From a virus: a DNA stretch of 38,151 nucleotides. How positions within the stretch are numbered: position 1 is the stretch's first letter; the number at the start of each line of letters is the position of its first letter. Under the pieces are notes generated by a model. It saw only the letters and a list, made by a program, of their open reading frames with translations, had not been told where the DNA came from and searched no databases. The translations under genes and the position numbers were made by a program. Of this stretch, positions 25,989 through 38,151 are shown one piece after another. Where the stretch lies: the UHGV virus genome UHGV-0331106. One strand, given 5' to 3'.

Positions 25989-26174
25989 CTATTTCAGTCC
26001 CAACTTCTTAATAATGTTTCTTGCAAGTCTCTCGTTGATATCTGGATGTCTCGGAATGGGTTCGCTCCTATGACCATCCGTATATATGTCATGGTTTCCA
26101 CCATTTCTCTTTATACGTATATTATACGCATAAATATATCCATTGTCAATAGTAAATACGCATTTTATACGCAT
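25989..26174 (-). CDS. hicA: HicA-like mRNA interferase toxin
   Basis: NGGNHDIYTDGHRSEPIPRHPDINERLARNIIKKLGLK resembles E. coli HicA NGSNH...PRHP...ILKQLGL. No SD at the annotated ATG. Confidence 0.6.
   Translation of the reverse strand: MRIKCVFTIDNGYIYAYNIRIKRNGGNHDIYTDGHRSEPIPRHPDINERLARNIIKKLGLK
26121..26149 (-). promoter_or_regulatory. consensus sigma-70 promoter TTGACA-17-TATAAT inside the hicA 5' coding region
   Basis: Minus strand TTGACAatggatatatttatgcgTATAAT, flanked by TGCGTATAA repeats. Confidence 0.5.
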
Positions 26175-26303
26175 TTCTTTAAATCAAAAAACGCCCCGCA
26201 AATGCAGGACGTCTTTACTTGGTTTATGCAAGAGTAGGGGGAAGAGCCGCAGGCGCTTTGCCTTTTGGCTCTAGTATTATTATACATATGCTTTTTATGC
26301 GTG

Positions 26304-26714
26304 CTATGCGTTTTCTAAATAATCATCAATTCTTCTGCTCACACGGCTCTGATCTAAATGTACCGCTTTCGCAACCGCCTTCTGTTTTCTCCCCTCGACG
26401 AAGCACATCCTGAAGATCCGCCTTGTAATGCCATCAGTTATCGCTTCCACCCATTCCTCTATCTCCACACATTCCTGCTCCAGCTGCTCCTTCCGTCGCT
26501 GATCCCGGTCCTGAAGGCGATCATACTTCTCCTTGTCGAATCCTACCACACCCTGTGGCATGGGATATCCCTTGCTGTAATCAAAGATTACGTCATTCCC
26601 TATCAACCCCTCATCTCTCCATCGGTTTTTGAGTATGTAATCCAGCTCCAGAATCTCATCCTTTTTACTCCGGTATCCCTGGAGCAGCTCCTTTGTTATC
26701 TCCACCCGCATCAC
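26304..26714 (-). CDS. ArpU-family / sigma-70 region-4-like late gene transcriptional regulator
   Basis: C-terminal HTH RRIFRMCFVEGRKQKAVAKAVHLDQSRVSRR and KGYPMPQG motif. Positioned upstream of the packaging genes. Confidence 0.6.
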   Translation of the reverse strand: MMRVEITKELLQGYRSKKDEILELDYILKNRWRDEGLIGNDVIFDYSKGYPMPQGVVGFDKEKYDRLQDRDQRRKEQLEQECVEIEEWVEAITDGITRRIFRMCFVEGRKQKAVAKAVHLDQSRVSRRIDDYLENA

Positions 26715-28620: not shown

Positions 28621-29970
28621 TCATACCTGCTTCTCCCTAATTGCTTTGATCCTTGCCTTTAAGCTCTGCATCACCCATGCCTGCACATCATCTTTCTTTT
28701 CCAACGCCTTCATCACATCCTCATCCCGGGTATCCGCACACACAAGGTGGTGGATGATCACTCGTTCTGTCTGCCCCTGTCGGTGCAATCTCTTGTTTGC
28801 TTGAGTGTACAGCTCATAATTCCATGTCAATCCGAACCAAATGACATGATTTCCACCTTGCTGCAGGTTCAGTCCGTAAGCGCTGCTTGCCGGATGGGTC
28901 AGAAGGATGTCGATCTGTCCGGCATTCCAATTATCCTCATCCCGTGTGTTTTTCAACTCCCGGACACGCAACTTTGTTTTCTTGAGCGCCTCCAACAGCC
29001 GGATCCGGTCATGCTGGAAATTGTAAAACACCAGTGCCGGCTTTCCTTGCAGGGATTCAATCAACTCCATAAATGCCTCGATCTTGCAGTTATGCACCTC
29101 GTGGATATTCCGATCTTCGTCATAAATCGCCCCGTTTCCAAGTTGTAGAAGCTTATTGCTTAACGCCGCTGCACTAGTCACGCTAATCTCCTCCTCATCT
29201 TCCGGAAGCTCCAGTACCATCTTCCGTTCCAAGTCGGCATAGGCTTTTCTTGATTTATCATCCAGCATTACCGGGATTTCGTGATAAGTGACTTCCGGAA
29301 GCTGTAAGTAATCCTCCGCTTTCATGGAGATGCAGATATCCGAAATTTTTTGCAAGATGCTTTCTTCCGTTCCCGGCTTTGCCTTGTAGTTATATATCAC
29401 ACCCCTGCCCCTGTCCCTGTCCCCGGGATCAAAATACCGTTCCCGGAACTGTGTGTATCTCCGTCCCAGACGTTCGCCTCCATCCAGAAGGAATACCTGT
29501 GCCCATAAGTCCTCAAGTCCATTTGGGGAAGGTGTACCTGTAAGCTCCACAATCCTGTCGATATGCGTCCCAACACTTGCCAGGGATTTGAACCTCTTCG
29601 CCTTGTGACTCTTAAAGCTGCTGGACTCATCGATGACCACCATATCAAACGGCCAGCTGTTCCGGTAGTAATCCACCAGCCAGCATACATTCTCCCGGTT
29701 GATAATATAAATATCTGCCGGCGTGTTTAATGCCCGGATTCGTTTTGTCTGGCTTCCCAAAACCGGGGAAACCCTCAAGATCTTTGTGTGATCCCATTTA
29801 TCTTTCTCTTTCGTCCATGTACCCTCCGCTACTTTTTTCGGTGCGATCACCAGCACCTTTTTCACTTGGAACCGGTTATACTTCAATTCACGGATCGCAG
29901 TCAGGGTCGTGACTGTCTTTCCCAAACCATTAACCCATGTCCAAAAAAAGCCCGATTTTTTTAATCTCAA
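28621..29970 (-). CDS. SNF2-family DEAD/DEAH helicase
   Basis: GLGKT Walker A and VIDESS DExx box. TTG start only 15 codons before Walker A. Confidence 0.8.
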   Translation of the reverse strand: MRLKKSGFFWTWVNGLGKTVTTLTAIRELKYNRFQVKKVLVIAPKKVAEGTWTKEKDKWDHTKILRVSPVLGSQTKRIRALNTPADIYIINRENVCWLVDYYRNSWPFDMVVIDESSSFKSHKAKRFKSLASVGTHIDRIVELTGTPSPNGLEDLWAQVFLLDGGERLGRRYTQFRERYFDPGDRDRGRGVIYNYKAKPGTEESILQKISDICISMKAEDYLQLPEVTYHEIPVMLDDKSRKAYADLERKMVLELPEDEEEISVTSAAALSNKLLQLGNGAIYDEDRNIHEVHNCKIEAFMELIESLQGKPALVFYNFQHDRIRLLEALKKTKLRVRELKNTRDEDNWNAGQIDILLTHPASSAYGLNLQQGGNHVIWFGLTWNYELYTQANKRLHRQGQTERVIIHHLVCADTRDEDVMKALEKKDDVQAWVMQSLKARIKAIREKQV

Positions 29971-30305
29971 TGATTTTGTTTATGCAGTATTGCTGATAAC
30001 CGTGCGGTTTGAACATCATGTAGCATCACCTCCTCACATTCCTTCAAAAATTCTGTCACTTCTTTTTCCCCGTAAAGTACCATCACTGTCTGACCTAAGT
30101 CTTTTAATCTTTTCAGCTGCACCCTTTGTAGGGACGTCAGTCTCCCTGTTATTGTTTTCAGCTCTACAAAAATTGCAGGCAACCCGGGAAGAACTACAAT
30201 CCGATCCGGCACACCGTCATTACCGGGGCTTACCCACTTGAACGCTCTGCCGCCCAGTTTTCGGATTCCGTCCACCAGCATTTTTTCTACTTCTCTTTCT
30301 TTCAT
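29967..30305 (-). CDS. VRR-NUC domain nuclease
   Basis: GVPDRIVVLPG...FVELKT. ATG at 30305 with SD GAGGAA, overlapping the upstream stop (ATGA). Confidence 0.75.
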   Translation of the reverse strand: MKEREVEKMLVDGIRKLGGRAFKWVSPGNDGVPDRIVVLPGLPAIFVELKTITGRLTSLQRVQLKRLKDLGQTVMVLYGEKEVTEFLKECEEVMLHDVQTARLSAILHKQNH

Positions 30306-30568
30306 GTCATAAATTCCTCGCTTTTTATTTTCCACATAATTTCCGGGTCAATAGGATTCTCCCAAGACCATACGTATCCTTCGGTTACTTTTTCAGTTCC
30401 TATGCTGAGGCGTTTTCTTGCCTCTCTTATCTCACTTTTTCTAACACCTTCTCCCTGCATCATCCCCTTCACATAAAGCATCGCCTCTTTCGCTGTTGTA
30501 CTTTTCTTCCCCACAAAAAATTTTGACAACAGCATTTCTGCACAGAGAACTCTATTTTCATCAAGCAT
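30302..30568 (-). CDS. hypothetical protein (88 aa)
   Basis: ORF only. Confidence 0.35.
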   Translation of the reverse strand: MLDENRVLCAEMLLSKFFVGKKSTTAKEAMLYVKGMMQGEGVRKSEIREARKRLSIGTEKVTEGYVWSWENPIDPEIMWKIKSEEFMT

Positions 30569-30657
30569 TTTTCTTTCTCACTTTCTTCTGTTTTTTCGGA
30601 ACGAACACCTTTTAAATTTCTTCTCAAGAATATCCACCCCTTTCCGGCTTGCCGCAA

Positions 30658-30923
30658 CCAACTTCCCTATAATATGTAATGAGATATCTTAATTAGGTAA
30701 TTTAGGTACATTAGGTACAACAGGTATATTTACCTAACCTATATATTTTTTCATTACTATAGAAAGTTGGTTTACATAGTTTACATATACTTAAAAACCT
30801 TTGCATTTACTGGGTTTTCCTGACAACTAAGTACGTAAACTTTTAAAAATTTACCGTTTACTCGGTTTACATCGCTATTTTTCTCCGTAAACCGCATTTT
30901 TTCGTATGGTATACGCATAACGT
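30658..30923. repeat. iteron cluster / putative origin: TAGGTA(A/C) x4 with inverted TACCTA, and GTTTAC(A) x5 with inverted GTAAAC x2
   Basis: AT-rich 265-nt intergenic region immediately upstream of the primase-helicase gene. Confidence 0.55.
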
Positions 30924-33323
30924 TTACACCCTTTCAAATCCTTTTTGTGTCCCATATACACCGTAGCGTCTCACGCTTTTATTTCGTTTCCATCCTTTTA
31001 TTGATGCCAGGATACCGTTTATCTCCATGCTGTCGGTTTTCTTCATAAATTTCACATCCCCATTAAAGCATTCTGCCCACACTTCCATCGCGCAAACTTT
31101 ATCTCTTTCTACCAATTCCGTTCCCTTTGGAAGATGCAGGCTTCCTGCGTAAAATTGTCTGCGCTGCGACAGGCTTAAGGAATCCCAGTTCGAAGGAATC
31201 AGACGTTCTAAGAATTCCCGGATCAACCCTTCCTTCCCGGATGCCTCTCTGTGGCTCTCCTGCATCTCTTCCGCCAGTTGTTCTTCTTCCTTAGTCATAT
31301 ACAGTGGTTCCCCCAACAGCCAATAGGTGTATGCCTCCGCCCATATCTGATCCACCTCCTGTGGCAGATCCTGCCACACGGACTTCTTTGCCGGATGCAC
31401 GCCCACATCCACTGGCCAGAACCGTCTATTTCCCGTCATGTCCTTTAAAAACTCTTCTTCGTTGCTCGTTCCGAAGAAGACGCAGCGGCGCGGATATTTG
31501 TTTGTTCTGCGCCCATAGGCGGCACGGTAGATATCGTCTGTCTTACTTAAAAACTGCTTGACCGCATTGGTCTCCTGCTTTGTCATAGCAGTCAGTTCCC
31601 CCACCTCATTGATCCACGTTCCCTGTATAAGTTCTGCGGCCTCTTTTCCCTCAAAACTAGTCAGGGAATCGGAAAACCAGTCTTTTCCCAGTATCCGCAG
31701 GAACGTACTCTTTCCGATTCCCTGCGGACCGGTAAAGATTGGCATATAATCATATTTCACGCCACCTGTGACCGCCCGGGCCACCGCTGCACACAGAGAC
31801 TTACGCATGACGGCCCTTGTGTAGCCGTTATCCTCAGCACCCAAATACACGCTCAGAAGTGTATCTAGCCGATTCTGTCCGTCCCATTTTAAGGATTTCA
31901 AATACTCTTTCACGTCGTTGATGCGGTTCTGACTACTCACGATCAGGAGTGCATTATCCAACTTCTCTCTACCGGTAATCCCGTAGAACAATTCCATATA
32001 ATTATAGAAGCCCGCATCATCTTCATCTTTCCATCTCCGCTTTTCCTCGCCCGCACTCCACGGAACTTTTCCGAGGATCAAGCCGCAGCTTGCAAATTCA
32101 TCCGTCACAATCTTCCCTTTTAAAAGAGGGTCATTCTGCAAGATGAGCACCGCGTTATTGATCGTCTTTTCTATTTTTCCGTTTCCGTCATGGGTAAGTC
32201 GGGAGATCCAAGACAGGTCATCTTCCGATACTGTCTCTCCCTCCTCTGCTTGGAATGCCTGTCGAGCCTGTTCCATCTTCTCTTTCGCAAGCAAATCGGA
32301 AACTCCCTTATCGCCAACTGCCAAATGGCTCATAGCCACAAAGGACGGCAGTTTATTCACAGGAGTTCCGTCTTTCGCGTCCCGATCCTTATCACCGTAC
32401 ATATGTAGGCGCACAAGATCAAAGGCATTAACGAGCATGCCGGAACACGGATCCGTTGCGTGGTGAGAATAAAGGAACAGATCCCCGTCATACACAACTG
32501 CACCGCCCACCGTAGACCCGCCAGTGTAGGTATAACGTCCCTCAATATCCGTAGGATCATACATCCCCGGAATGAACTTCTCCATTGCCTGAGAGATCGT
32601 GTATGTCCGGCAGAATGCACCGATGATTCCACGCTTTGTAGTCGGGTCTTCCTGTTTCGCAAGCCGTCTCTTTTCGATTGCTGCCGTTCCCGGCACCTGT
32701 GGCCATTGCGAAATATCTGTCCAGTCTCCGTACATCTGAAGGAGACCGGACAGGCTGCAGAATGGGTGATCGTATACTTCAAAGATGTATTCCCCGTCTT
32801 TACAGCAGCTTGGCCAGTACATCAGCCTCGACACATCAAAAGTAGTCGGGTCACAGAATTCCATTCCGATCAAAGATGCCAGCTTTCTTGCCGCCGGCTC
32901 ATATTCATCCGCTGACGCGGTCGCATCCAGTGGTACAATCACACGGAGTCTGGGCGCATACCCAGCGTGTTTTCTTGTGCTGTAGACCAAAGCCGCGCAC
33001 CCCAAACCGGATACCCGTTTCAAAATCTCATCCGTACCGCCTGCGGGGATGTTATCCATGTCCAGAGTCAGAAGATCTCTGCCCTTTACATAAGCAGCTT
33101 TCCGGATATTATTCTCAAATGTGCCGCCCACAAAACCACCGACATCTTTTAATTCATCCTGTCGGTATTTCGGCATCGCAAGATATTCTTCCACTGTCTC
33201 CGTACTTCGTACCGGAGTTTTTACCCTGTATGCAAATTCAGACCAGAGGATTTCTGTTTCCGGCCAGTGCTTTGTTTTTCTTGTGCCGGCGGTACTAATG
33301 TGTAATTTTCTGTTATGCTGCAT
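30924..33323 (-). CDS. primase-polymerase / VirE-D5-type helicase (799 aa)
   Basis: P-loop GPQGIGKST in the C-terminal half; N-terminal prim-pol-like region. SD GAGGGA. Confidence 0.8.
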   Translation of the reverse strand: MQHNRKLHISTAGTRKTKHWPETEILWSEFAYRVKTPVRSTETVEEYLAMPKYRQDELKDVGGFVGGTFENNIRKAAYVKGRDLLTLDMDNIPAGGTDEILKRVSGLGCAALVYSTRKHAGYAPRLRVIVPLDATASADEYEPAARKLASLIGMEFCDPTTFDVSRLMYWPSCCKDGEYIFEVYDHPFCSLSGLLQMYGDWTDISQWPQVPGTAAIEKRRLAKQEDPTTKRGIIGAFCRTYTISQAMEKFIPGMYDPTDIEGRYTYTGGSTVGGAVVYDGDLFLYSHHATDPCSGMLVNAFDLVRLHMYGDKDRDAKDGTPVNKLPSFVAMSHLAVGDKGVSDLLAKEKMEQARQAFQAEEGETVSEDDLSWISRLTHDGNGKIEKTINNAVLILQNDPLLKGKIVTDEFASCGLILGKVPWSAGEEKRRWKDEDDAGFYNYMELFYGITGREKLDNALLIVSSQNRINDVKEYLKSLKWDGQNRLDTLLSVYLGAEDNGYTRAVMRKSLCAAVARAVTGGVKYDYMPIFTGPQGIGKSTFLRILGKDWFSDSLTSFEGKEAAELIQGTWINEVGELTAMTKQETNAVKQFLSKTDDIYRAAYGRRTNKYPRRCVFFGTSNEEEFLKDMTGNRRFWPVDVGVHPAKKSVWQDLPQEVDQIWAEAYTYWLLGEPLYMTKEEEQLAEEMQESHREASGKEGLIREFLERLIPSNWDSLSLSQRRQFYAGSLHLPKGTELVERDKVCAMEVWAECFNGDVKFMKKTDSMEINGILASIKGWKRNKSVRRYGVYGTQKGFERV

Positions 33324-33334
33324 CCGTCATCCCT

Positions 33335-35314
33335 CTAATCTTTCATATAATAGTTACTTTCAAATCCTGCGCCTTTCAGTATTAACCCTGGTGCCCATGT
33401 TATCGGTTCTGCCATCAGATTACAGATTTCATCTACTGTCACATCCATCGGCGCGTCGATGATCACTTCATCGTGGACATGGAATACCACCTGCAGCCCT
33501 TTTTTCTCAATTCTTCGTAATGTTTCCGCAAGACAGTCTCTTGCGATTGCCTGCACGATATTCTCTGTCATTTTGCCACCATAAGTGGACGTCACTTCCC
33601 ATTTCCTTGTCTGCTGACCCACTGTATAGTAATGGATAGCCGCTTTCCCGAACTGATTCTCCTGTAAAAATGGTTTCGGGTAAAAAAGCTTCCTTCCACT
33701 CGGAAGCTGTACTGTAAGGAAGTGTTGCTCATACACAAGATCGCTTTCCAGCGCAAAGATCAGTCCGTTGATTGCATGTGGTTGTGCTGTCAGCATCGTT
33801 TGTAACGATGCCTCTTCTACGGCATACCACAGGTCACGGATTCTCGGGTTTGCGCTCCTCCATCTCTGCACGATGTCCGGAAGTTCTTCTTCTGTCAGTC
33901 CCATATTCAAAGCCCCCATTGCAATCAGCGCATTAGAACCTCCCTGATATCCAAGCGCAAGCGTCGCAACCTTTCCTTTCTGCCGCAGACTGTATTCTGG
34001 ATTTCCTTTTGTGATTCTTTCGATCGGCACATGGAACATTTGAGATGCCGTCGCTTCGTAGATTTTTCCGTGGGTAGCAAACACTTCATTTACCCACTGT
34101 TCTCCTGCCAGCCACGCGATCACACGTGCCTCGATCGCAGAGAAGTCCGCCACTACAAACTTCTGCCCCTCAGAAGGGATAAACGCTGTTCGGATCAGCT
34201 GAGAAAGTGTATCCGGTACGTTTCCGTAGATCAGCCGAACGCCTTCATAATTTTTCGCCTTTACCAGCTTTCTTGCCTCGTCCAGTGTTTTCAGATAGTT
34301 CCGCGGGAGGTTTTGCATCTGCACAAGACGTCCTGCCCATCTGCCAGTTCTGTTAGCACCGTAGAACTGGGTCAGTCCTCGAACGCGTTCTCCTTCTCCC
34401 TCTGCGGTTTTCATAGCTACATATTTTTTAATGGAGGTCTTTCCGAGCTGCTGACGTATCTCCAGCACCCTCCTCACCTCATCTGATATATCACTACGGC
34501 TCAATAATTCCGTTACGTTCTCTTTCGTCAAGCCGGAGATTTCTCCGGATATTTGCTTTTCAATCCACACTTTTAACTGTGAGGTACTGTTCGGATTTCC
34601 AAGTCCGGTAATATCAATAGCTTCCATCGTCAGGTTTTCACTGCTGATCGCGTCGATAGCCAGAGCCCCGTTGATCAGCTCCTCATCCACACGAACTCCG
34701 TACGCATTCATCCGAATATCCATCTGCCATAAGAACTCTTCCTCTTCCGGAACTGGATACTGCTCCAACCGTTTCAAAATCTCGTACTCTGTTATTACGT
34801 CCTGCTTGCAGTAATCTTTAAAAAGCACCCATTTTTCAGGCGCATGTTTTGGCAAGTTCCATGTTCTGTTCCCGTTCGTCTTTGTCGGTTTACATGGTAC
34901 ACAAAAATATCGGATCAGTGCCTTTCCTGTTGTCAACTTCCGCTTATCCTGCGGCAGTCCGATTGCTTTTCCGGTTGCGTCCAGACCTGCTGTATATCCG
35001 CAGTACAGACCGTGCATCATAGTACATCGCCACTGCTCCAAAGGAGTCGTATATCCAGCGCGATTTAAACAGTACCATTCAAAGGCTGCGTTATATGCGT
35101 GTTTGATCGTATCCGGATCTACAAGCTCGTCCAGTATCCAGTCCGGAATCAATTCACCTGTAGCAAGATCCACAATCTGAACCGGATCATCATCCCATTT
35201 GTAGGCAAATAAAAGGATTGCAAAATCCGGAGACTGTGCATATTTATATAATCCAGCTTTTCCAATATCTATGCTGCTTTTTGTCTCTATATCTATCGAT
35301 AGATGATGCCTCAT
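33335..35314 (-). CDS. family A DNA polymerase (PolI-like with 3'-5' exonuclease)
   Basis: DIET exonuclease motif near the N-terminus and HVHDEVII motif C. SD AAAGGAG. Confidence 0.85.
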   Translation of the reverse strand: MRHHLSIDIETKSSIDIGKAGLYKYAQSPDFAILLFAYKWDDDPVQIVDLATGELIPDWILDELVDPDTIKHAYNAAFEWYCLNRAGYTTPLEQWRCTMMHGLYCGYTAGLDATGKAIGLPQDKRKLTTGKALIRYFCVPCKPTKTNGNRTWNLPKHAPEKWVLFKDYCKQDVITEYEILKRLEQYPVPEEEEFLWQMDIRMNAYGVRVDEELINGALAIDAISSENLTMEAIDITGLGNPNSTSQLKVWIEKQISGEISGLTKENVTELLSRSDISDEVRRVLEIRQQLGKTSIKKYVAMKTAEGEGERVRGLTQFYGANRTGRWAGRLVQMQNLPRNYLKTLDEARKLVKAKNYEGVRLIYGNVPDTLSQLIRTAFIPSEGQKFVVADFSAIEARVIAWLAGEQWVNEVFATHGKIYEATASQMFHVPIERITKGNPEYSLRQKGKVATLALGYQGGSNALIAMGALNMGLTEEELPDIVQRWRSANPRIRDLWYAVEEASLQTMLTAQPHAINGLIFALESDLVYEQHFLTVQLPSGRKLFYPKPFLQENQFGKAAIHYYTVGQQTRKWEVTSTYGGKMTENIVQAIARDCLAETLRRIEKKGLQVVFHVHDEVIIDAPMDVTVDEICNLMAEPITWAPGLILKGAGFESNYYMKD

Positions 35315-35363: not shown

Positions 35364-35984
35364 TTACATCGGAAGTCCTGTGATAGGATTGATCTGAACT
35401 CCCCCATTTTGTGGATGTGTTGCTGATGCCGGCTGTGGCGCTCCGAACGCCTGTGCAGCGGATACGTGTCCCCCTGACAGGGTTTCCCCATCTTCCAACT
35501 TCTGAACCGGACCCAGTCCACATCCAATTCCTTTCTTCCCTCCAAATGAGTAAGGGAAGAAATTCACGTTCACTCGTCCGTACATTCCGCTGTACACTTC
35601 TGACTGATTGATGATCGGATTTCCCATCTTATCCACTACTTCCGGTGGATAATCTACCTTCGCACTTGCGGTAAACACCCAATGACCTTTACATTCTTCT
35701 CCGAACGGCATGCCGTCACTTGGCCGGACTCCATCTCCATCGTAAACCGGAGTCGGTACGATTGGAGGGCACGCCCCATTCCATTTTTCTGTAATCCCCT
35801 TTTGTTTCGCGGCTTCAATCGCTGCATTGATCCGGGCCATTGTTTCCACATCCGTCTTCGGGATCAGTACAGTTACACTGAATTTTTCTTCCTGCCCCTG
35901 CATTGCAGCATAAGGCTTAAATAAATGTACATAACTTAATCTTGCTTTTTCTGTTGTTACGTTCGTTGCTTCTCCGATTCCCAT
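35364..35984 (-). CDS. DUF2815-like phage protein (ssDNA-binding-like member of this replication module)
   Basis: Synteny between the DUF2800-like nuclease and PolA. Family name recalled from memory. Confidence 0.5.
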   Translation of the reverse strand: MGIGEATNVTTEKARLSYVHLFKPYAAMQGQEEKFSVTVLIPKTDVETMARINAAIEAAKQKGITEKWNGACPPIVPTPVYDGDGVRPSDGMPFGEECKGHWVFTASAKVDYPPEVVDKMGNPIINQSEVYSGMYGRVNVNFFPYSFGGKKGIGCGLGPVQKLEDGETLSGGHVSAAQAFGAPQPASATHPQNGGVQINPITGLPM

Positions 35985-35985
35985 T

Positions 35986-37164
35986 TCAATTTTCCTCCTT
36001 AAATGCTTCCTGTGCGGTTACTTTATTTGTAATTGCATGTCTCTTATCAGATGCTTCTACTAGTGTCGGTTTCCCCGGTTTCTGGGTCACAAACTCTCCC
36101 ACAGCATCTGCAAAATCTTTCTTTCCGATTGTCTTTTCCACCTGTGCCATTGTCAGCGGCTTTTTCTCCCAAAGGATTTCTTCTGCCACAACACCGCTCT
36201 TAGTTAATTTTTCAAAAGCGGCATCCATGTCCGTCCAGTCGCGGGATCGTCTTCCTTCCACTGCCTTCCATCCGGGAACTTCATTCCCGGCGAGACATTC
36301 AGACAGCGCCCACTCCTGCAGGTCTTTCTGATATGCAACTACGTCCCTCATTGCCAAAAGACGTTGTCCGGCTTCCTCCTTTGTAATCAGTGGTGGCAGC
36401 TCTCCTAAATTGAACGCCATCTTCACATTGTGGTCAGATCGTGCGCGGCATTGTTTCTTTGCCCGGCAGAACTTACAGGTCTTTTCTCCAGGTGCGAACT
36501 CTCCTTCTCCCGCAAATGCAAGTGTCGCGCGCTCTTTTGCATAAGCCCCAAATTGCAGGAGCTCTTCCAATGTACACTCCCATTCCGAAATTCCATCCGG
36601 AAGGCGGGGCTGTACAATTCCTAAGCGAATCCGCTCAATCGGATAAAGAATCTTACATGCTTCATACGCACCCAGCGCATACAACATCATTTGCGGATTC
36701 TCTTCGGCGGAAACAGGAACACCTTTTCCATATTTGAAATCAATTACGAACAGAGTGTTCCCCTGGATCATAATACAGTCTGCAGTTCCGAATCCTTCCG
36801 GAACATAATCACTGAAATCGACCCGTTTCTCCACTTCTACAAACGGAGTTGCCGGAAGCTTGATAGATACATCCCGGATATAATCGATATAAGTATCTGT
36901 ATGTATCAACATCTCGTCATCCCACAGAGGATCTTCTTTAAATTTTTTGATTGCAAAGGTGAGTTTACGTTTGGAAACGTCCCCGGGATTAAAATAATTC
37001 CGCACCTTCAGTTCAGCAAGTTCATGTGCCAGTGTACCTTCCTTTGCCGCTTCCGAGGTAGTATCCGGAAACTGTTCTTCCAATCGAGCACTCTTCGTAC
37101 ATTTGAGCCATCGATGTGTGCTGGATGCACTTAAGAGTGCGTGATCTCTTTCATCATGTCCCAT
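35986..37164 (-). CDS. PD-(D/E)XK nuclease, DUF2800/Cas4-like with C-terminal Cys cluster
   Basis: DFKYGKG motif and CKFCRAKKQC Fe-S-like cysteines. Confidence 0.6.
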   Translation of the reverse strand: MGHDERDHALLSASSTHRWLKCTKSARLEEQFPDTTSEAAKEGTLAHELAELKVRNYFNPGDVSKRKLTFAIKKFKEDPLWDDEMLIHTDTYIDYIRDVSIKLPATPFVEVEKRVDFSDYVPEGFGTADCIMIQGNTLFVIDFKYGKGVPVSAEENPQMMLYALGAYEACKILYPIERIRLGIVQPRLPDGISEWECTLEELLQFGAYAKERATLAFAGEGEFAPGEKTCKFCRAKKQCRARSDHNVKMAFNLGELPPLITKEEAGQRLLAMRDVVAYQKDLQEWALSECLAGNEVPGWKAVEGRRSRDWTDMDAAFEKLTKSGVVAEEILWEKKPLTMAQVEKTIGKKDFADAVGEFVTQKPGKPTLVEASDKRHAITNKVTAQEAFKEEN

Positions 37165-37751: not shown

Positions 37752-38151
37752 TCAGCTTTCTTCTTCTGTCTTCTGTTCATTTCCCGTCCTCCTGAATCTT
37801 TTTTCCATCAGTGCCGCAAGGTCGAGGTATTCCTCGGCTATCGCAGATTCCCCGTGCGTCTCCCGGATCTTATCCCGGAACTGTGCAAGCGTCCCGTAGA
37901 AGCATCCGCACCGTACACCCACGCCACCATCTTTGAGACGGAAGAAGGTCGTTGTGCGGTTGACAGATCCGAAACCGTGAGCGTATGCATAGTCCCCATC
38001 GCCGGAAACCTGTGCATCTCCGTACACCCACGCATTGTCGTACACCAGCGCATTGCCGCACACCAGCGCATTGCCGTACACCCACGCATTGCCGTACACC
38101 CACGCATTGTCGTACACCCGCGCATCGCCGGAAACCTGTGCATCTCCGTAC
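37752..38151 (-). CDS. C-terminal part of hexapeptide-repeat protein (frame open to the window end)
   Basis: ...YGDAQVSGDARVYDNAWVYGNAWVYGNALVCGNALVYDNAWVYGDAQVSGDGDYAYAHGFGS...KTEEES*. No start codon inside the window; in phase with the 1-194 fragment. Confidence 0.6.
   Translation of the reverse strand, partial: YGDAQVSGDARVYDNAWVYGNAWVYGNALVCGNALVYDNAWVYGDAQVSGDGDYAYAHGFGSVNRTTTFFRLKDGGVGVRCGCFYGTLAQFRDKIRETHGESAIAEEYLDLAALMEKRFRRTGNEQKTEEES
37990..38151. repeat. 18-bp tandem repeat array, 9 units, coding
   Basis: Units begin at 37990, 38008, 38026, ..., 38134. The last three units are identical to 1-54. Confidence 0.9.

Follow-up and report, generated by a model that had tools for sequence, protein, structure and literature searches.

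A probable SaPI1-type replication origin downstream of the primase-helicase gene in a temperate Lachnospiraceae phage

An AT-rich gap in the replication genes of the virus genome UHGV-0331106 is crowded with short repeats, and the question raised by this locus is whether these repeats mark the place at which replication starts or serve some other function. The stretch of DNA analysed, referred to here as the window, is the whole sequence of 38,151 nt, within which the repeat field and its gap were located. The preliminary description proposed an iteron-type origin served by the adjacent primase-helicase, a pairing which is now well supported by homology and by comparative evidence. It also placed the repeats upstream of the primase-helicase gene, but since this gene (30924-33323) lies on the minus strand the field is on its 3′ side, that is, downstream, which is the canonical position for the SaPI Rep-type initiator family. 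Here the minus strand encodes every gene, and the genes follow one another, in the order of transcription, as listed.

35986-37164, minus strand: DUF2800 exonuclease, the first in order of those listed
35364-35984, minus strand: Gp2.5-like single-stranded DNA-binding protein (SSB)
33335-35314, minus strand: family-A DNA polymerase
30924-33323, minus strand: VapE-type primase-helicase, 799 aa
30569-30923: non-coding gap, after the primase-helicase in the direction of transcription
30302-30568, minus strand: 88-aa ORF, the next gene after the candidate origin, followed by the VRR-NUC and SNF2 genes
29967-30335, minus strand: VRR-NUC nuclease
28621-29970, minus strand: SNF2 helicase

The gap had been described as AT-rich and 265 nt long. 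Its base composition agrees with this, GC being 0.31-0.33 in the repeat region versus 0.42-0.52 in the flanks, but the non-coding gap (30569-30923) extends over 355 nt and ends at the ATG of the next ORF. Exact copies of GTTTAC begin on the plus strand at 30770, 30779, 30856, 30865 and 30922, and exact copies of GTAAAC at 30835 and 30887. All of the five direct and two inverted units counted earlier were thus recovered, the last of them (30922-30927) reaching beyond position 30923, where the field had been taken to end. Two degenerate ATTTAC copies are found at 30806 and 30849. SaPI origins contain 6-12 iterons immediately downstream of the rep ORF (PMC9371898, PMC7581432), and the field in the window, with seven exact and two degenerate hexanucleotides, is of this size and likewise lies immediately downstream of the ORF of the putative initiator. 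Of the 26 GTTTAC/GTAAAC sites in the window, seven are packed into ~160 bp, forming the densest hexamer cluster of the 38-kb window (seven copies; runner-up, five). A cluster of seven was reached in 0 of 40 first-order Markov randomisations of the window and in 0 of 2000 randomisations of the gap; the clustering of these repeats is real and non-random. All seven exact iterons lie within 160 nt 3′ of the primase-helicase stop codon, and the elements of the gap are arranged as follows, beginning at that codon.

30922-30927, minus strand: iteron 1, GTAAAC on the gene strand, overlapping the TAA stop codon (30924-30926) of the primase-helicase
30887-30892, plus strand: iteron 2, inverted, GTTTAC on the gene strand
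30856-30870, minus strand: iterons 3 and 4, GTAAACcgaGTAAAC on the gene strand, with a 9-bp period
30835-30840, plus strand: iteron 5, inverted
30785-30834, minus strand: spacer of 50 nt with a semi-conserved GAAAACCC..AAAGGTTTT element, recognised by comparison across loci
30770-30784, minus strand: tandem iteron pair, (T)GTAAACtatGTAAAC on the gene strand, also TGTAAACtaTGTAAAC, with a 9-bp period, reported as an array by TRF
30668-30767: AT-rich tract, candidate DNA-unwinding element from nearest-neighbour energies
30694-30742: second repeat family, inside the AT-rich tract
30569-30667, minus strand: distal part of the gap, without iterons, running to the 88-aa ORF

Iteron 5 is separated from iterons 3 and 4 by a short A/T stretch, GGTAAATTTTTAAAA, and the tandem pair directly adjoins the AT-rich tract. 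By nearest-neighbour energies, the least stable 100-bp duplex of the 38-kb window coincides with this tract (30668-30767; z = 3.7) and the least stable 40-bp duplex lies within it (30725-30764; z = 3.4), so that both stability minima are found beside the tandem iteron pair. GC skew is uninformative on the position of an origin because it only follows gene orientation, with no inflection at 30.7 kb, and a search of the phage-collection DNA with 30200-31400 returned no match. No DnaA box within two mismatches of TTATCCACA was found inside 30640-31018; since such boxes are absent and the repeat unit is 6 nt long, the gap does not resemble a plasmid-type, DnaA-dependent origin, and host DnaA is not implicated.

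The gap might instead hold a small structured RNA or a short peptide gene, in which case the repeats would be incidental. Two small ORFs, of 45 aa (30781-30918) and 31 aa, can indeed be drawn on the gene strand. The longer of these is broken by a 10-nt indel in one relative (L041) and by the wholesale replacement of iterons in others, and no Rfam family was found in the gap at E ≤ 1, the only match being sub-threshold and outside it. The RNA fold of the gap is no better than that of shuffled sequences (z = -1.2), and none of the RNA and single-stranded DNA folds, whether of the gap, its spacer or the TAGGTA region, did better than its shuffles (z from -0.65 to -1.7); neither a structured RNA nor a strong hairpin or cruciform is therefore supported in the window. 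An RNA or peptide gene is therefore very unlikely to be what the gap provides.

The candidate initiator was examined through its homologues of known structure. The 799-aa primase-helicase has its primase part at the N-terminus, followed by a VapE/SF3 helicase and, at the C-terminus, a winged-helix domain (CTD, residues ~700-799). It matches the Pfam VapE-like domain (E = 2.5e-81) and PHROG DNA helicase/primase families, and its residues 371-757 align with chain A of PDB entry 7PDS (E = 1.8e-77), the cryo-EM structure of SaPI1 Rep1 with DNA (PMC9371898). An AlphaFold2 model of residues 641-799 has a pLDDT of at least 90 over residues 700-799 and consists of three helices followed by a beta wing. 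When this model was submitted to Foldseek, the only significant matches were the six chains of 7PDS (probability 1.0), and the weak remaining matches were mostly winged-helix DNA-binding domains. BLASTP aligned the CTD with that of Rep1 at E = 1e-16, the alignment reaching the C-terminus through KSVRRYGvYGTQKGF in the window and KSRHRFGegIGRQYGF in Rep1. Like the SaPI origins, the gap therefore has as its neighbour a Rep-homologous SF3 helicase-initiator with a C-terminal winged helix. SaPI Rep proteins are self-loading initiator-helicases whose C-terminal winged helix reads penta- or hexanucleotide iterons; Rep1 and PriRep5 have each been shown by gel-shift assays to bind their own origins, and deletion of the PriRep5 CTD alters origin binding (PMC9371898, PMC7581432). 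The preliminary description had suggested the N-terminal domain as the part that binds the repeats. This is probably wrong, since both the homology to the Rep1 CTD and the co-variation of wing residues with the iteron, described below, favour the C-terminal winged-helix domain, which is most likely the DNA-reading part of the protein.

Relatives were collected as 120 loci from IMG/VR and a species-level genome collection, with homologues at 49-100% identity; the closest genome matches are Lachnospiraceae MAGs of Faecalimonas (93%), Schaedlerella (92%) and Marvinbryantia (91%). Among 102 loci, 82% have some hexamer in at least five copies in the first 336 bp past the stop codon, compared with 3.8% of 5464 control windows taken from the same loci, and in 69 of the 102 the post-stop window ranks top in its own locus. 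The hexamer itself is lineage-specific, with more than 15 types in one layout among the homologous loci, including GTAAAC, GGCAAC, GTCAAC, GTGAAC, GTACCC, GTATAC, GTCTAC, ACTACA, GTAACA, GGTAAC, GGATAC and TGTTGCA. The layout that recurs, in about 100 homologous loci, is one of opposed iterons, a spacer, a tandem iteron pair and an AT-rich tract. The tandem pair (8-9 bp period) is the most conserved architectural element of the family and lies, across 60 distinct loci, a median of 131 nt after the stop codon. The tract that follows it in these loci is 68-95% A+T, the lower figure being the threshold by which tracts were selected, and iteron copies upstream of the pair are in the opposite orientation in 53 of the 60. 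A further one to three iterons, inverted, precede the VRR-NUC gene in 21 of the 60, at a distance of 95-106 nt past the tandem pair. The corresponding part of the window is occupied by a replacement segment, which carries the 88-aa ORF and is without any iteron. This segment is identical in the window, L004-L007, L038 and L039, with a diverged copy in L042, and in the loci that have it the TACCTAA set is expanded to four copies.

The 88-aa ORF (30302-30568) has no Pfam or PHROG match. Several relatives (L001, L017, L018 and L077) have a different small ORF in the same position downstream of the origin, and these share, by eye, a common ...VLCDD/E...KELK.ARK.L motif; the replication module may have, in the small ORF after the origin, an optional accessory gene. 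Most relatives have, after the second repeat set, an alternating purine-pyrimidine tract such as TATACGCGCGCGTGAG or ACACGTGTGTGTG. Where present among L008-L123, this tract is conserved, measures 15-25 bp and lies 60-110 nt after the tandem pair, and it is absent from the window. Alternating purine-pyrimidine tracts are prone to form non-B DNA.

The same layout is present in the cultured S. aureus phage phi7401PVL (Triavirus), E. faecalis phage phiFL4A and Paenibacillus phage Pd_22F, all three records of which show a 280-340-bp unannotated gap between the VirE and VRR-NUC genes (L121, 5419-5758; L122, 5407-5738; L123, 5413-5694). The gaps contain 7-12 copies of TGTTGCA in phi7401PVL, of GGATAC in phiFL4A and of GTCAAC in Pd_22F, and these isolates would lend themselves to tests of the origin. 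Short phased repeat arrays of this kind are also typical of packaging (pac) sites and of centromere-like partition sites. The terminase genes are ~6 kb away from the field, no ParA/ParB-type gene was found among the proteins scanned, and in every relative the repeats accompany the gene for the primase-helicase, with whose CTD they co-vary, all of which make a packaging or partition site a most improbable reading of the array.

The co-variation is centred on the wing. Residue 784, just before the conserved RRYG, is the most iteron-class-associated of 657 variable alignment columns, and residues 792, 781, 782 and 765 are also among the top 20. The mean z of the 16 wing columns (780-795) is 2.8, versus 0.8-1.5 in regions outside the winged-helix domain. 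In a partial Mantel analysis that controlled for the remainder of the protein, sharing of the iteron was linked to identity in the CTD (r = 0.14, p = 0.0006), and the converse link was weaker (r = 0.07, p = 0.02). Lys784 pairs with CC-ending iterons (TGTTGCC, TGTTACC and TGTACCC) in at least five lineages of 54-80% overall identity, the DKRRYG motif pairs with GTACCC in three distant lineages, and TPRKY-type wings pair with nCTACA iterons. The most clear-cut case is L042, whose protein is 92% identical to that of the window at the amino acid level and whose gap has diverged by 13.9%. Five of the seven iterons of L042 have the same change at position 3, GTAAAC to GTGAAC (GTTTAC to GTTCAC on the other strand), while the other 35 iteron positions are all unchanged (P ~4e-6), and its wing reads KRNKRTRRYG versus KRNKSVRRYG in the window, a replacement of SV by RT. 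The hexamer types, residue 784 and L042 thus all point to an iteron specificity matched to the cognate initiator, as in the SaPIs, and suggest that hexamer type tracks wing residues 783-784. Since the statistics are modest and confounded by shared ancestry, this evidence is supportive but not conclusive.

The second repeat family behaves differently from the hexamers, with which it had earlier been grouped as one kind of element: GTTTAC is a lineage-specific iteron, whereas the core [A/T]TAGG is constant across lineages. Of the four direct TAGGTA units originally described, three are exact on the plus strand (30694, 30703 and 30712), but the fourth, at 30721, is CAGGTA; all four (30694-30726) are in 9-bp phase. 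The inverted unit TACCTAACCTAT is present on the plus strand at 30731-30742, as claimed, with TACCTA/AACCTA at 30731-30741. The gene strand has here the sequence TAGGTTAGGTA-aata-TACCTGttgTACCTAAtgTACCTAAatTACCTAA, with four TACCT(A/G)(A/T) units after TAGGTTAGGTA. TAGGTA is not enriched over the window as a whole (11 found versus 8.8 expected), and its 9-bp tandem array was detected by TRF. In the relatives, [A/T]TAGG recurs at the same place whatever the iteron type, often at 9-bp intervals, with forward [A/T]TAGGnn copies +23 to +42 nt from the tandem pair and inverted copies at +48 to +68. TTAGGTA and TTAGGCG variants coexist in one locus and, because variants are mixed within loci in this way, there is no lineage code for [A/T]TAGG. 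Column-wise association with the primase-helicase gave no convincing signal for a protein partner of TAGGTA, the single top column, residue 324, coming from only 27 representatives. From these comparisons TAGGTA is regarded as a separate conserved motif, not an iteron, inside the tract that is expected to melt.

Candidate roles for TAGGTA/TACCTA are an auxiliary binding site or primase start sites. Left-hand copies of TTAGG stand on the top strand and right-hand copies on the bottom strand, a geometry which would fit outward-directed primer starts or a symmetric auxiliary factor, although this is speculation. It is a rather doubtful extension that such origins carry two codes, a fast-evolving hexamer "address" read by wing residues 783-784 and an invariant [A/T]TAGG "ignition" for outward primers. 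Equally tentative is its spatial counterpart, in which the [A/T]TAGG copies, phased at 9 bp and arranged symmetrically around the middle of the melted tract, would by their orientation on the two strands enable the fused primase to start outward primers in both directions. Were this two-code arrangement true, replicon specificity across thousands of related gut prophages and SaPI-like satellites would be determined by the hexamer address, origin specificity and phage-satellite cross-talk would be predictable from sequence, and replacing two residues, SV by RT, should redirect the initiator to GTGAAC instead of GTAAAC.

A motif that stays constant whatever the iteron is also what would be expected of the site of a conserved regulator, and the gap could accordingly be a transcriptional boundary, with a terminator for the polymerase/primase-helicase operon and promoter or operator repeats for the VRR-NUC/SNF2 and late genes. 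The gap does lie between two co-oriented gene blocks, and in some relatives the spacer holds a GC-rich hairpin with a T-run after it and the next RBS is immediately preceded by a conserved tract. A scan of 30200-31200 revealed neither a sigma-70-like promoter nor an intrinsic terminator on the gene strand, and the spacer hairpin of the window is weak (DNA fold of -4.1 kcal/mol, z = -1.4) and less clear than the GC-rich hairpin of those relatives. Furthermore, the lineage-specific hexamers co-vary with a CTD homologous to that of a proven origin-binding initiator, and the same layout in SaPI1 is a functional origin (PMC9371898). Taken together, these data make a boundary function unlikely as the explanation of the gap. 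It is similarly unlikely that the repeats bind a transcriptional regulator, possibly the primase-helicase itself, although an initiator bound downstream of its own gene could in principle be engaged in regulation rather than initiation. The two roles are not mutually exclusive.

The reading preferred here is that the gap after the primase-helicase gene is, with high probability, the replication origin of the phage and of the SaPI1 Rep1/ori type. According to the co-variation and the homology to Rep1, the C-terminal winged helix would read the seven GTAAAC hexamers in both orientations, and the protein would presumably form hexamers on the iteron field and the tandem pair (30770-30784). The adjacent AT-rich tract (30668-30767), of low computed stability, may then melt. 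By analogy with the SaPI model, the SF3 helicase would load itself without a separate loader, and the fused primase, together with the neighbouring family-A polymerase and SSB, would start synthesis.

Several other features of the window were noted. Its first 54 bases are identical to its last 54 (regions 1-88 and 38014-38151), both ends contain the same 18-bp coding repeat with a 54-bp super-period, and the junction of the ends is crossed without a break by a minus-strand ORF whose repeats are hexapeptide-like (...NAWVYG/DAQVSG...). It is probable that the window represents a complete genome of ~38.1 kb, either circular or terminally redundant; since the overlap equals the repeat period in length, it could also be coincidental. 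A tyrosine integrase is encoded at 5068-6300 and, just after it (6258-6280, 6320-6340 and 6474-6498), two ATGCAACAC direct-repeat pairs flank GGATGACAGGAATCGAACCCG, which contains the reverse complement of a tRNA T-arm (GGGTTCGATTCC). ARAGORN found no whole tRNA, and the GGATGACAGGAATCGAACCCG region resembles an attP core that includes part of a tRNA 3′ end and has arm-type integrase sites on either side. Beside the integration module, at 2919-4094, the phage genome contains an IS110-family transposase (DEDD_Tnp_IS110, E = 3e-45). A perfect consensus promoter, TTGACA-17 nt-TATAAT, is found on the gene (minus) strand at 26149-26121, downstream of a 136-aa protein (26304-26714) with a weak match to sigma-70 region 4. 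The promoter is embedded in ATGCGTATA(A) repeats, with CGTATA five times within 170 bp, and the surrounding region (26079-26180) is possibly a late-gene control region. The element as a whole is, quite probably, a temperate Lachnospiraceae phage that carries a SaPI1-type origin without distal inverted iterons.

These observations place a replication origin for a very large family of temperate Bacillota phages, most of them uncultured; the search for homologous initiators yielded more than 8000, and the family includes the S. aureus PVL-type Triavirus and E. faecalis phiFL4A. By tying these phages to the studied SaPI1 Rep1/ori system, they suggest a shared ancestry of SaPI and phage replicons. 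The element is a useful way into a large natural series of iteron switches, which together with the matching changes in the wing amount to a testable protein-DNA recognition code, relevant to vector design in gut Clostridia as well as to replicon compatibility and satellite-helper specificity. Within the literature searched, the coverage of which was limited, no prior description of the origin in DUF2800/PolA/VapE/VRR-NUC phages was found. Since the basic design is already known, the finding is confirmatory rather than surprising, and its place among known origins can be given by comparison.

Plasmid iteron origins (RepA/RepE/Pi) resemble the window in having initiator sites beside an AT-rich unwinding element. 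They differ in their 17-22 bp iterons and in their dimer/monomer WH-WH initiators, which recruit host DnaA/DnaB, whereas the window has 6-nt units, a helicase that by the SaPI model would be self-loading, and no DnaA-box-like sites in 30640-31018. The alpha protein of satellite phage P4 is a fused primase-helicase whose C-terminal DNA-binding domain recognises short repeated sites, and P4 initiates without a host initiator; unlike those of the window, its repeats are octamers in two separated regions (ori and crr) and not a field adjoining the gene. SCCmec Cch2 is like the window in being a D5/SF3-type helicase with direct repeats just downstream of its own gene, short repeats which form a putative origin and are bound through the C-terminal domain of the helicase. 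It is unlike the window in having only three 5-nt iterons (AAGTG) and in belonging to a different helicase subfamily, and the element is not known to replicate (PMC7581432).

For the comparison with SaPI1, the rules of SaPI origins were taken from PMC9371898 and PMC7581432 and a SaPI1-type origin was read directly from NZ_CP095113.1 (L124), a circular S. aureus sequence of 14,042 bp whose Rep is the 7PDS protein (1067 bits). This record was deposited as a plasmid and is actually a circularised SaPI1-type pathogenicity island, containing HTH regulators, pri, a rep identical to the 7PDS protein, and ori; three further S. aureus "plasmids" of 15.9 kb look similar. Its gap 3′ of rep is 285 bp long, with GGGACA four times from the stop codon, a 44-nt spacer, TGTCCCtgTGTCCC, ~78 nt of AT-rich DNA and GGGACAatGGGACA. 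The order of iterons from the stop codon, spacer, tandem pair and AT-rich DNA is therefore common to SaPI1 and the window, as are hexamer iterons in both orientations and a homologous initiator-helicase, C-terminal winged helix included. The tandem pair has the form TGTnnnC in both, TGTCCC in SaPI1 and TGTAAAC in the window, and that of the window occupies the same position as TGTCCCtgTGTCCC, in the same orientation to the gene and to the AT-rich tract. Unlike SaPI1, the window has its primase fused to the helicase, as in PriRep5 of SaPI5, and represents an entire temperate phage that encodes a family-A polymerase, an SSB and an exonuclease of its own. The AT-rich tract of the window holds the second, phased repeat family TAGGTA/TACCTA, whereas the SaPI1-type gap has a single CCCTAA there. 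In SaPI origins the AT-rich region is central and is flanked on either side by two or more oppositely oriented iterons (PMC9371898, PMC7581432). The window departs from this two-sided rule because inverted iterons beyond the AT-rich tract, which the SaPI1-type reference has 95-106 nt past its tandem pair as do the 21 relatives, are absent: 30569-30769 contains no iteron, at least two opposed iterons on each side of the tract are not found, and the opposed iterons that are present are all proximal to the gene. The SaPI1 origin, with the same layout, has been established experimentally as functional (PMC9371898), and the copy in the window is, on the strength of the sequence comparison, most likely a variant that works like a SaPI origin.
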